Shown: one piece after another, positions 13,801-16,800 of the stretch
How positions within the stretch are numbered: position 1 is the first letter of the stretch
How the letters are laid out: each line of letters opens with the position of its first letter
Assembly: GCF_003019035.1 (NCBI RefSeq)
Contig: NZ_CP027447.1
From: Escherichia coli
GTDB lineage: Bacteria; Pseudomonadota; Gammaproteobacteria; Enterobacterales; Enterobacteriaceae
Reading direction: 5' to 3' (one strand)
Length of the DNA: 64,000 bases
Position numbers: made by a program

Positions 13801-16800
13801 TAACGGACCGAGTTCAGAAATAAATAACGCGTCGCCGGAAGCCACGTCATAGACGGTTTTACCCCGATGGTCTTCAACGAGATGCCACGATGCCTCATCA
13901 CTGTTGAAAACAGCCACAAAGCCAGCCGGAATATCTGGCGGTGCAATATCGGTACTGTTTGCAGGCAGACCGGTATGAGGCGGAATGTATGCATCACCTT
14001 CACCAATAAATTCACTGGTTCCGGCCAGCAGATTATAAATTTTTATGGTCCGTGGTTGTTCACTCATTCTGAATGCCATTATGCAAGCCTCACAATATAG
14101 TTAAATGCGATGTTTTTGACGGTGTTTTCCGCGTTACCAGCAGCGTTAACGGTGATGGTGTGTCCGTGTGAACCAATACTGAAAGAATGGGCATGAGCAC
14201 CGATAACAACCGGATGCTGGTGCGCACCAATACCAACTGTATGCGCATGTGCACCGGCACTCACAGCTGTACCGGACAATGAGTGACTGTGGTTGCCCTG
14301 ACTGTCCGTTTTCGATAAATAAGCAATACCCTGTGTGTTGGTTCCTTTAACTGTGGATAAACTTCCTGTAATGGTTGCTGTTCCATACTGACTCCAGCCA
14401 GAACTGTTCATCCTTAAACCACTTGTGTGGGCATGAGCACCCGCGGCCCCTGTTGAACCGCTCAGACTGTGAGCATGAGCCCCCGTGTTATTCGTCGATT
14501 TGGTGCCGTAATCGAAACTGCCTGTTGTTTTCGTCCCGTAATCAAACGACGATGTGGTTTTCGTCCCCAAATCCGTACCGGATGCACTGGCACTGTGGGT
14601 GTGCGACTTAATTCCATCCTGTTCCTGAGACAATACAGCACGACCGCTGGCGGGTTTCCCCTTGATTGTCCAGCCTCGCATATCAGGAAGCACACCCGAT
14701 GGATACGCGACAGCAAGTTTTGGGTAGGCTGATTTGTCAAACGCCTGCCCCTGCATCAGGACGTAGCCAGACGGAACGATATCTGATGGCCACGGGATCG
14801 GCGCACCTGCCGGAAAGGCCGAATTCTCTCCGGCTCCAAGGTATTCAAGAACATCTGCAACAGAATTTTTTGCCAGAATATCCCTGCCAACCTGAGTCAG
14901 TTCAGTCAGGCTGGCGGCATCATTTTCCGCAAAATACGGTAATTTATTTTTCGCCGTGGAAAGCCCTGCCAGCGCCGTCAGTGTCGCATTCTTCGGTTGT
15001 TTACCCGCAAGCGCGTTAGTCATGGTGGTAGCAAAATCTGGATCATTCCCGAGCGCTGCGGCCAGTTCATTCAGCGTATTCAGTGCGTCAGGTGACGCGT
15101 CGATAACATCTGCAATCGCGGCCAGTACAAAAGCGGTGTTCGCAATCTGGGTATTGTTTGTTCCCCTGAGCGCGGTTGGTGCTGTTGGCGTTCCGGTCAG
15201 TGCCGGACTATCCAGTGGGGCTTTTCTGTTCGTTTCATCCATTACCACCTTAACCGCCTTTGGCGTTGCAGCAAGCGTTTCAGACGTGCTGTTGGTTGCA
15301 CTGCTGAGCTGCACTATCCCCTTTCTCGTTGTGTCCGCATCCTCAAGCGCGACAGCTGAAGCTATATCTTCTGCACGTTTTGCCGAGTTTTCTGCACGTA
15401 TTGCCGCCGCTTCTGCCGCACTTTTGCTCTGCGATGCTGATACCGCACTTCCCGCAGCCTCTGTCGCCTTCGTGGATGCCGTTGACGCACTCCCCGCCGC
15501 CGCTGTTTTTGCGTCTGCCGCGGCAGAGGCGCTCCGTTCCGCTGCTGTTTCAGATGACCTGGCATTCGTCTCGGACGTTTTTGCCGCCCTGGCAGAATTT
15601 TCTGCCGCCGTTGCCGAGGAAGCTGCACGACCGGCACTTGATGATGCGTTCGTTTCTGATGATTTTGCTGCCTCTTTTGAGGCCACCGCATCTCGTGCTG
15701 AAGTGGCGGCCTCTGACGCTTTAGTGGTCGCGGTGGAGGCAGACGTGGCGGCTGATTGTTGTGACGCTGCAGCATTCGTTTCTGACGTTTTCGCCGCACC
15801 GGCACTGGTGGCCGCCGCGCTTTTTGAGGACTCTGCAGCGGCAGCACTTTTTTCCGCTTCAGTGGCCTTTGTTGATGCCGTTCCTGCGCTGGAAGACGCT
15901 GACTGAGCCGACGAAGCGGCCTGTCCGGCTGACGTGCTGGCTGCGCGTGCTGAGCCTGCAGCATCAGTCGCATGGGTTGCCGCCTCACGGGCTGATGTGC
16001 TGGCATCGCCGGCTGACTTCTTCGCGGCTGCCGTGTTCTGTGCCACCACGGACGCGTTACGCGCCACCTCTTCCACCATCAGTTCAAAACGGCGCAGTGC
16101 CTCAGGACGGGCATCATCCTCCGTCATGGCACCGAGAAAATCATTCAGCGTACCGGGTCGGGAATCTTCATACACGGTGATGGTCCCGGCATGTGACGGC
16201 GGGAATCCTTCCACCAACAGAATAACGCTGTACTGACCGTACTCAACGTCCATGCTGTAACGCCCGGCTTCATCCGGATTTTCTGAGGCCAGCGTGTTCA
16301 CCACCACCGTGGTACTGTTACGTTTTGCTTTCAGCTGGATTGTGCAGTTCTGTACCGGTTTTCCTGTGCCGTCTTTCAGTACACCTGAAATCTTTACTGC
16401 CATATTCACCCCACAAAAAAGCCCGCCTGAACCGGCGGGCTGTCATAACACTGTGTTACCTGGCTAATCAGAATTTATAACCGACACCCACGATGAAACC
16501 GTCAGTGCGCCAGTCGCCACTGCCGGAACCTTCATAAGCGACATCAACGGCCACGGATTCGGTCGGGTTAAACTGCACGCCAGCCCCCCACGCCAGAGAC
16601 GTGTTGCTGTGGCGACCGTCATCACTTCCGATCAGCACATCGTGCGTTTTCCCCGTATTGTCGGTCACCTGCAGATAATCCCCGGAGAAAGTCGACACAC
16701 GGCTGTAAGCCACACCCGCCATCGCATACGCGCTGAACCATTCATTCACGCGCACAGACGGCCCCGCCATCACGCTGAACCAGCGGTTACGCACGGAATC

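Follow-up and report, generated by a model that had tools for sequence, protein, structure and literature searches.

The open frame at positions 14079-16409 (minus strand) of the window, by which we mean the whole 64,000-nucleotide stretch of Escherichia coli contig NZ_CP027447.1 that was analyzed, is very probably (about 95%) an intact stf allele carried by a mosaic lambdoid prophage. According to this reading the gene encodes a trimeric side tail fiber with a coiled-coil shaft, a T4 gp37-type tip, OmpC as receptor and Tfa as chaperone, and the large open frame on the opposite strand is a side effect of codon usage. The data directly show the sequence identities, the domains, the periodicity, the register of the motifs and the gene context, and we infer the trimeric state, the metal binding, the OmpC binding and the chaperone role of Tfa from published work on lambda and T4. 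The identification is correct but ordinary, since it describes an already known system; reading of the sequence alone had rightly picked out a lambda-type side tail fiber and a gp37-like tip, and very little in this is new.

The stf gene and its neighborhood

The open frame 14079..16409 (minus strand) was present and gives a protein of 776 aa when read from a GTG codon at 16409. The more likely start is the ATG at 16403, giving 774 aa beginning with MAVKISG, because lambda Stf starts there, as does the solved N-terminal chain 9E7M, and because a GGGGTG Shine-Dalgarno-like motif lies just 5' of it. The side tail fiber gene was placed accordingly at 14079..16403, with the GTG as the alternative start, and the residue numbers of the HxH motifs below count from the ATG. 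Its TAA stop codon (14079-14081) overlaps, in the form TAATG, the start codon of the gene immediately 3' of it, tfa (13495..14079, minus strand), which encodes a predicted tail fiber assembly chaperone of 194 aa (PF02413, E = 2.4e-44). Tfa is a Caudo_TAP protein with a C-terminal match to U, the assembly protein of Mu (5YVQ_B). Upstream of stf on the same strand lie lom (16468-17067) and the central tail fiber gene J (17135-20530), which together span 16468..20530, and the gap between lom and stf holds a terminator-like hairpin at 16420..16441 (minus strand; AGCCCGCCGGTTCAGGCGGGCT followed by a T run). The gene order J-lom-stf-tfa is that of lambda.

The gene was compared with the intact lambda stf. 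The data showed 100% coverage and 96.4% nucleotide identity, and the top matches were lambda, HK629, HK630 and related phages. The two proteins, each of 774 aa, align without a gap and differ by 28 substitutions (96.4% protein identity), only one of which, N704S, falls in the last 548 residues. Ur-lambda Stf is thus alike in length, collinearity, DNA and protein identity (both 96.4%) and gene order. The lambda reference, KT232076, is flagged UNVERIFIED_ORG in GenBank, but, the PaPa frameshift aside, its stf is consistent with that of the other lambda records. In lambda PaPa, stf is 1 nt shorter (2324 vs 2325 nt) and is annotated as two open reading frames, orf-401 and orf-314, whereas the frame in the window is intact. 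Three Pfam domains were found in the protein (phage_tail_N, Phage_fiber_2 and Collar). The full-length match to lambda, these domains and the overlapping tfa gene agree with the earlier note, which had called 14079-16409 a side tail fiber.

The codon differences from lambda, 48 synonymous and 28 non-synonymous, argue for purifying selection on stf. Identity to lambda stf was 88.8% over the first 640 nt and 99.35% over the rest, which points to a recombination joint within the coiled coil. The prophage backbone is not that of lambda: its head module is HK97-type, the C-terminus of its J is of the type seen in Stx phages, and its lom is divergent. In practical terms the window provides an unbroken allele of stf (the laboratory copy in lambda PaPa is frameshifted) with an OmpC-type tip one residue away from that of Ur-lambda, and its presence on a prophage with a different central-fiber receptor domain is another case of tail-fiber module shuffling.

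The N-terminal domain and the shaft

Stf residues 1-91 (16131..16403, minus strand) correspond to the N-terminal tail-attachment domain, phage_tail_N. PF08400 matched residues 3-136 (E = 5.5e-72), and the N-terminal 94 aa (residues 3-96) matched the solved chains 9E7M and 9MGH (E = 8.5e-52). In Ur-lambda the N-terminal domain of Stf forms a collar at the gpV/gpM junction (PMC12617516).

The A/S/T-rich part of the protein was examined by composition and periodicity. Ala, Ser and Thr together made up 76, 72, 70 and 64% of four consecutive 50-residue blocks from residue 151 to residue 350, so the earlier description of a tract of about 200 residues holds, but its label of low complexity undersells a regular heptad coiled coil. 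The heptad repeat extends over residues 106-350 (15354..16088, minus strand), with about 35 unbroken heptads (about 245 residues), Ala at the core positions and the consensus A-x-x-S-A-x-x. Across residues 106-350, residue autocorrelation had a peak at every seventh lag from 7 to 56, with z values of 6.7-8.7, and the periods of Ala in the tract were 3.49 and 7.0. The published domain map of Ur-lambda Stf, from cryo-EM and cryo-ET, places the proximal coiled coil at residues 102-393 (PMC12617516). Judged by its sequence, the tract is the proximal coiled-coil shaft, and it coincides with the published one.

It is very improbable that the tract lacks an ordered shaft structure and serves as a low-complexity linker or spacer. 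A content of 64-76% A/S/T does resemble low complexity, and no Pfam domain covers the tract; however, the heptads run unbroken for about 245 residues (z about 8 at all lags divisible by 7; Ala period 3.49), which speaks for an ordered rod, and for the identical region of Ur-lambda the published model is a trimeric coiled coil that cryo-ET shows as a rigid rod (PMC12617516).

C-terminal to the heptad repeat, residues 358-396 (15216..15332, minus strand) form a Phage_fiber_2 repeat, common to Mu- and P2-type tail fibers (PF03406, E = 2e-19). Residues 352-411 align to residues 106-164 of 5YVQ_A, and the E value with 5YVQ_A and 8JU3 was about 7e-8. The fibers of the Mu S and P2 H type (5YVQ, 8JU3) share this repeat and the C-terminus of a Tfa-type chaperone, but only those short segments are related, and the tips are different folds.

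The HxH needle and the tip

The C-terminal part of Stf was compared with the tip of T4 gp37. Residues 520-776 (257 aa) aligned with chain positions 17-242 of 2XGF at E = 2.4e-73 with 65% identity. On this alignment residues 533-580 (14664..14807, minus strand) are a phage tail collar domain (PF07484, E = 8.3e-11), the base of a gp37-type tip; residues 601-748 (14160..14603, minus strand) are a needle that, by the 2XGF match and motif count, carries eight HxH motifs; residues 660-704 (14292..14426, minus strand), between HxH 3 and HxH 4, are a variable tip insert and putative receptor-binding head, identical to that of Ur-lambda except for N704S; and residues 749-774 (14082..14159, minus strand) are an invariant C-terminal segment common to T4 gp37.

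The HxH motifs lie at residues 601, 643, 657, 705, 719, 728, 737 and 746 and hold 16 of the 18 His residues of Stf. Shuffles of the whole protein gave a mean of 0.41 HxH and a maximum of 5, as against the 8 observed, and when the last 179 aa were shuffled 20,000 times a count of 8 was never reached. Three HxH motifs ascend the needle together with two FDYGTK units, and of the five that descend the final four are spaced by 9 residues; a tandem period of 27 nt was found at 14187-14255 within this part of stf. Seven of the Stf motifs are in register with all seven iron-binding HxH motifs of gp37, and those columns are invariant His in the alignment. The eighth comes from a 9-residue GAHxH insertion on the returning strand, paired with a 10-residue duplication of FDYGTK on the ascending strand. 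For T4 gp37, published work places seven irons along the needle and finds the His residues essential (PMC6957217). With its paired insertions, the needle of Stf and its eight HxH may represent the seven-iron needle of T4 lengthened by one layer, to hold eight metals. Ur-lambda Stf also has eight HxH, compared with seven in T4.

Homologous tips were also analyzed. All 118 complete tips carried 6-8 HxH motifs, so the HxH periodicity on which the earlier reading depended is present in homologues. In 116 of the 118, the number of FDYGTK copies plus the number of HxH motifs before the tip equaled the number of HxH motifs after it, as expected for an out-and-back needle. The tip inserts of these homologues, 31-53 residues long and lying between invariant flanks, were of 43 distinct kinds. 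The column-for-column alignment of seven HxH with those of gp37 bears out the suggestion that the repeats resemble metal-binding fiber tips and carries out the comparison with T4 gp37-type tips that had been proposed.

Structure prediction with AlphaFold2 gave no usable model: a single chain of 257 aa from the C-terminus, run on 19 aligned sequences, reached a mean pLDDT of 44, and three chains connected through (GGGGS)x6 linkers, run on 8 aligned sequences, reached a pLDDT of 31.6. The proposed fold of the tip and its putative metal sites rest on homology to 2XGF. Collar, needle and tip are homologous between the two fibers, which share the seven HxH motifs, the C-terminal segment and a variable tip between HxH 3 and HxH 4. 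The differences from T4 gp37 are the eighth HxH with its paired 10- and 9-residue insertions, and a tip insert of 45 residues in Stf against 33 in gp37, with unrelated sequence. T4 gp37 also has no counterpart of the Stf N-terminal domain or coiled-coil shaft, and its chaperone is gp38, whereas that of Stf would be Tfa; lambda Tfa has been reported to substitute for gp38.

The antisense open frame

The frame on the plus strand at 14956..15906 has 316 codons within a stop-free run of 336 codons and is the equivalent of lambda orf206b. It lies opposite Stf residues 166-483, and the A/S/T tract covers only about 58% of its length. A stop in this frame requires, on the sense strand, a Tyr codon after a codon ending in a pyrimidine, or a His or Gln codon after a codon ending in T. 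The stretch between sense codons 167 and 503 lacks any such pair, and the antisense frame is open for this reason. When the order of the codons in the tract was shuffled, an equal or longer antisense open frame arose in 49% of 2000 trials. Segments of J, analyzed as a control, also had long antisense frames (mean 172 codons), which indicates that antisense openness is general to these GC-rich phage genes and not specific to the tract. Comparing the length of the antisense frame between the window and lambda says nothing about selection, since the two sequences share 99.35% identity there.

These data support the antisense frame as a by-product of sense codon content, and the frame that the earlier note had called spurious is present and very probably spurious. 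That it encodes a real protein overlapping stf is highly unlikely. In favor of such a protein are the length of the frame and the name orf206b, which annotations of lambda have given to its counterpart from the first sequence onward. However, the codon-order shuffles reproduce the frame in about half of the trials, the missing codon pairs explain its openness, and J has a comparable antisense frame of 510 codons. The product would consist of 30% Ala, 15% Ser and 13% Val and matched no Pfam family, and the only promoter-like site found upstream of 14956 was one weak match at 14073-14101, about 855 nt away.

Receptor and proposed action of the fiber

The receptor of Stf is probably OmpC, as the tip differs from that of Ur-lambda by one residue (N704S). 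Ur-lambda virions carry four trimeric side fibers that speed adsorption through OmpC; their Stf binds OmpC, and adsorption is faster only on OmpC+ cells (PMC12617516). Both T4 gp37 and Ur-lambda Stf are reported to bind OmpC (PMC6957217, PMC12617516). A receptor other than OmpC, such as LPS, is quite unlikely. T4 gp37 binds LPS as well as OmpC (PMC6957217), one review-type paper called lambda Stf LPS-binding, and tip inserts vary greatly, as the 43 distinct ones among 118 homologues show; but the insert here is that of Ur-lambda save for N704S, and it is for Ur-lambda Stf that OmpC binding and the dependence of faster adsorption on OmpC were reported.

The fiber would be built and act as follows. 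By near-identity to Ur-lambda Stf, three Stf chains would form one fiber, with residues 1-91 docked on the tail tube just above its tip. A short linker would lead into the A/S/T tract, where about 250 residues would form the proximal shaft as a heptad coiled coil with an alanine core; a hinge, a distal shaft and the T4 gp37-type tip with its collar domain and six-stranded needle would follow. Each chain would go out to the tip and then back, and each HxH layer, formed by the three chains, would be expected to coordinate one metal ion, which is iron in gp37, bound octahedrally by six His within an intertwined homotrimer. The small variable head between HxH 3 and HxH 4 would touch the receptor, presumably OmpC, and Tfa, from the overlapping downstream gene, would be needed for folding of the tip. 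The fiber would then speed reversible adsorption before the central fiber J engages its own receptor.

The prophage and its embedded PICI

The more interesting context lies outside stf, in a capsid-encoding satellite within the terminase gene of the same prophage. This helper-embedded PICI of 15,081 bp (33578..48658, minus strand) lies inside the prophage terL and is tail-less: no tail family match was found in any open reading frame of 33578-48658. Its genes are, in order, int, two AlpA genes, a Bro-N/antirepressor gene, an AAA_25 RepA-type helicase gene, DUF4222 and SSB, followed by a head module of HNH, terS, terL, portal, protease, major capsid and adaptor genes, which follows the zone order of a PICI (int-AlpA, Bro-N, replication, late genes). 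The proteins of the head module are 27-40% identical to the head proteins of the prophage itself. Deletion of 33578-48658 in silico restored a terL of 585 aa, identical at 582 of 585 positions to an uninterrupted homologue. Alignment to the uninterrupted terL placed the junctions at 33564-33577 and 48645-48658, where an imperfect repeat of 14 bp forms the flanking core. A 21-nt direct repeat at 33646 and 48494 was ruled out as the att site, since deletion between its copies does not restore terL. ARAGORN found no tRNA in the window, where only a 3' tRNA fragment is present.

The interruption of terL bears on whether stf is used at all. While the PICI is in place, the prophage may be able to supply tails but not to package its own DNA. 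One might regard stf as a silent relic of a prophage made defective by the split terL, so that Stf is never assembled, and the 15.1-kb element in terL and the end of the window inside the prophage, which leaves the integrase end out of view, fit such a state. We consider it unlikely, as stf, tfa, lom and J, like the genes for tail and head, are unbroken open reading frames, the codon differences from lambda are mostly synonymous, excision in silico yields the 585-aa terL with its 582 matching residues, and helper-embedded PICIs have been reported to excise on induction.

EcCIEDL933 and KpCIDSM30104 are reported to be induced by their helpers and to use the helpers' tails. It is possible, and we propose it only tentatively, that prophage tails bearing the OmpC-type Stf are mounted on the capsids of the embedded PICI, so that Stf would help to set the host range of both satellite and phage; the eight-metal needle is a smaller point of this proposal. 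The earlier note had spoken of a likely receptor-binding module shared by helper and satellite particles, and by analogy with the published PICIs Stf may be common to both. If the tails are indeed common to prophage and PICI, Stf matters for the spread of the satellite. Neither the embedded arrangement nor the theft of tails is new to the literature, and the insertion site within terL has been published (A:Terminase_1:245/246). By its described features the element resembles EcCIEDL933-type and helper-embedded PICIs in gene content, in being tail-less and in its position within a helper late gene. The same junction between PICI and terL was found in 35 of 5426 complete E. coli genomes.

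The side tail fiber gene is an allele of lambda stf

The open reading frame that the earlier note had assigned to a side tail fiber was present in the ORF listing exactly as stated, at 14079..16409 (-), with 776 aa from a GTG codon. An ATG at 16403 gives a 774-aa Stf beginning MAVKISG, and this was taken as the likely real start because lambda Stf and its solved N-terminal chain, 9E7M, begin there; the sequence upstream of stf is GTGGGGTGAATATGGCA. Pfam domains phage_tail_N (3-136), Phage_fiber_2 (360-398), and Collar (535-582) were found in Stf. The genes lom and J lie upstream, and lom is separated from stf by a terminator-like hairpin. 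Downstream is the fiber assembly chaperone gene tfa (13495..14079, -; Caudo_TAP, E = 2.4e-44), whose ATG overlaps the stop codon of stf by one base (TAATG) and whose product matches Mu assembly protein U (5YVQ_B) at its C-terminus. A full-length match to Rfam RF02111 'IS009' (13538-13736, -; 223 bits vs a gathering score of 117) was located wholly inside the tfa reading frame, on its coding strand, and probably reflects conservation of tfa across E. coli prophages, not a separate RNA gene.

The stf gene was 96.4% identical to phage lambda stf at the nucleotide level over its full length, and its top nucleotide matches were lambda, lambda hybrids, HK629, and HK630. Comparison with the intact 774-aa lambda copy (KT232076) showed 28 amino-acid differences and no gaps. 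The side tail fiber call held. The codon differences from lambda comprised 48 synonymous and 28 non-synonymous ones, and 27 of the 28 amino-acid differences fell in residues 1-226, leaving a single one (N704S) in the other 548. Identity changed sharply at about 15764 (stf nt about 640), from 88.8% at nt 1-640 to 99.35% at nt 641-2325, which marks a recombination joint inside the heptad coiled coil of the shaft. In contrast to the window's intact gene, the copy in the laboratory phage lambda PaPa is 1 nt shorter and is annotated as orf-401 and orf-314. The finding is thus correct, but the thing is already known: this is a near-identical allele of a phage fiber that ranks among the best characterised, one for which a domain map has been published and the structure of a homologous tip solved. 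What is modestly new is descriptive only, namely a module-count rule for the needle of the tip, the mosaic joint in the shaft, and co-residence with a terL-embedded, capsid-encoding PICI.

The Ala/Ser/Thr tract and the frames opposite it

The earlier note had described about 200 A/S/T-rich residues as low complexity. The composition was borne out, with A+S+T shares of 76, 72, 70, and 64% in the four 50-residue blocks of Stf residues 151-350, but the tract is not featureless. Residue autocorrelation was significant at lag 7 and all its multiples up to 56 (z = 6.7-8.7), with depletion at lags 2, 5, 19, and 26, and the Fourier spectrum of the alanine signal peaked at periods of 3.49 and 7.0 residues. 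When heptads from about residue 106 to 350 were set in rows of 14, Ala occupied positions 1 and 5 and Ser position 4 in nearly every heptad. This heptad pattern identifies the tract as an alanine-core coiled coil. In Ur-lambda, which is lambda with an intact stf, a 2025 cryo-EM/cryo-ET study mapped Stf as a collar domain around the tail (1-91), a linker (92-101), a proximal coiled coil (102-393), a hinge (394-422), and a distal domain (423-525), followed by a receptor-binding domain whose receptor is OmpC (PMC12617516). The published coiled coil places the tract in the proximal shaft of the fiber.

The 316-aa antisense ORF opposite stf (14956..15906, +) had been called spurious, and the codon analysis agreed. 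It faces Stf residues 166-483, with only about 58% of it under the tract. Each antisense codon straddles two sense codons, covering base three of the first and bases one and two of the second; therefore, a stop can arise only where Tyr follows a codon ending in a pyrimidine, or where His or Gln follows one ending in T. A codon scan of stf found no such pair from sense codon 167 to 503. Codon-order shuffles of the tract yielded an antisense open frame at least as long in 49% of trials, and back-translations with J codon usage did so in 71%. The antisense product (30% Ala, 15% Ser, 13% Val) matched no Pfam family. We concluded that this ORF is very probably a by-product of codon content. J, the central tail fiber gene, holds a similar antisense frame of 510 codons (17906-19438, +), which is a composition artefact of the same kind. 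Several further frames are open across 15329-16236, and in the lambda record the equivalent antisense frame has long been annotated as orf206b, 'hypothetical'.

The HxH tip

Eight HxH motifs were found in Stf, all within residues 601-748 (ATG numbering; 14160-14603 in the window), and they contain 16 of its 18 histidines. Whole-protein shuffles gave a mean of 0.41 HxH and never more than 5, and when the C-terminal 179 residues alone were shuffled 20,000 times, 8 was never reached, confirming a count far beyond chance. Stf residues 520-776 (numbered from GTG) matched 2XGF, the crystal structure of the T4 gp37 receptor-binding tip, with E = 2.4e-73, and the tips were 65% identical in a 19-sequence alignment. 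All seven gp37 HxH motifs lie in invariant His columns common to Stf, and the proposed likeness to metal-binding fiber tips was upheld by this homology to a solved His-metal structure. In gp37, seven iron atoms are reported to be coordinated along the needle, and replacing tip histidines H929 and H931 reportedly abolished function (PMC6957217). Stf differs from gp37 in its eighth HxH, carried by a 9-residue insertion (VVIGAHAHS), and in having FDYGTK twice, the extra unit being a 10-residue insertion in the outgoing strand. Structure prediction of the tip was not usable, either as a single chain with the 19-sequence alignment (pLDDT 44) or as three chains with glycine-serine linkers (pLDDT 31.6); low values are no surprise for a homotrimer that is intertwined and stabilised by metal.

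With the C-terminal 257 residues as query, 2269 homologues were obtained at E <= 1e-10, and the 118 complete tips among the best 120 were compared. Absence of HxH periodicity from homologues had been named beforehand as counting against the claim; all 118 tips carried the motifs, with 6, 7, or 8 HxH in 22, 85, and 11 proteins, and tip length scaled with HxH count. Three architectures, given as the counts of FDYGTK units, of HxH preceding the tip, and of HxH following it, covered 116 of the 118: (1,3,4), (2,2,4), and (2,3,5). Outgoing units equal returning units in each, which was read as a likely constraint of an out-and-back six-stranded needle. Needle length is modular among homologous tips, and no statement of such a module-count rule was found in the publications consulted. 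Most of the variation among the 118 tips lay in the insert that separates HxH 3 from HxH 4 (43 distinct inserts, 31-53 residues), whose counterpart in gp37 contacts LPS and OmpC (PMC6957217). Since this insert in the window's Stf is that of Ur-lambda save N704S, we infer OmpC as the Stf receptor.

A satellite embedded in the prophage terL

The window holds a satellite, a PICI of 15,081 bp (33578-48658; junctions from alignment to an uninterrupted terL). It interrupts the prophage terL after about codon 343, leaving the ATPase domain and the first part of the nuclease domain on one side (48479..49672) and the remainder of the nuclease domain on the other (32834..33559). Relative to the uninterrupted terL of a related prophage, the junctions carry an imperfect 14-bp repeat (33564-33577 and 48645-48658), and in-silico deletion of 33578-48658 gave a 585-aa terL with 582 of 585 residues identical to the intact one. 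The same int-terL junction occurred in 35 of 5426 complete E. coli genomes, strain 042 among them. On the minus strand the gene order is int, two AlpA genes, Bro-N/antirepressor, a 502-aa unknown protein, a DUF4222 protein, an AAA_25 RepA-type helicase, SSB, a ProQ/FinO-family protein, major capsid, prohead protease, portal, head-tail adaptor, HNH, terS, and a second complete terL. The head proteins of satellite and prophage are only 27-40% identical, and no ORF of the PICI had a tail-family match. Repeats with TTCCCCAC/CTCCCCAC at about 84 bp spacing (41835-42050; families D1, D3, and D12), directly upstream of the helicase gene (42048-43463), look like candidate iterons of the satellite replication origin.

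PICIs of the capsid-forming kind supply heads themselves and borrow nothing but tails from a helper; which hosts they can reach depends on the tail borrowed. For helper-embedded PICIs, one terL site has been named A:Terminase_1:245/246 (PMC10111431). The element matches these two published kinds combined, a helper-embedded configuration with a capsid-forming late module. A fiber shared by helper and satellite is therefore biologically reasonable, and by analogy the Stf tip may be shared by this pair, as the earlier note had supposed.

Prophage mosaic and chromosomal setting

The window begins as E. coli-type chromosome (yedA, vsr, dcm ... hprRS, msrPQ, zinT), followed by a lambdoid prophage from about 13.1 kb. 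The prophage is mosaic. DNA identity to lambda was about 95.5% for J residues 1 to about 980 and the stf-tfa block, and J was about 97-100% identical to lambda J over roughly 900 residues. The J C-terminal receptor domain (17135-17650, last ~150 residues) showed 34-43% identity to lambda and 93-95% to J of long-tailed Stx-converting phages; given this divergence, the central fiber probably does not use lambda's LamB-binding domain. Overall identity of lom (16468-17067) to lambda lom was 45%, the 3' end excepted, and the head genes are of HK97/P27-terminase type.

A chromosomal porin gene (4491-5636, +), whose corresponding locus in a related genome is annotated 'porin OmpC' and lies between drpB and hchA, is 8 kb from the prophage whose side fiber is inferred to bind OmpC; this nearness is probably coincidental. 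Just past tfa, a tRNA 3' fragment (T-arm and acceptor end, ...GGTTCAAATCCCCCTCTCTCCGCCA; 13089-13149, -) adjoins the prophage end. ARAGORN found no complete tRNA in the window, and the fragment probably represents the duplicated att core left by prophage integration into a tRNA gene. Compared with E. coli JNEC-KY180, the stretch from zinT to the prophage end lacks about 1 kb with yodB (12492-13486 in the JNEC-KY180 locus) and has 222 bp (12419-12640) in its place.
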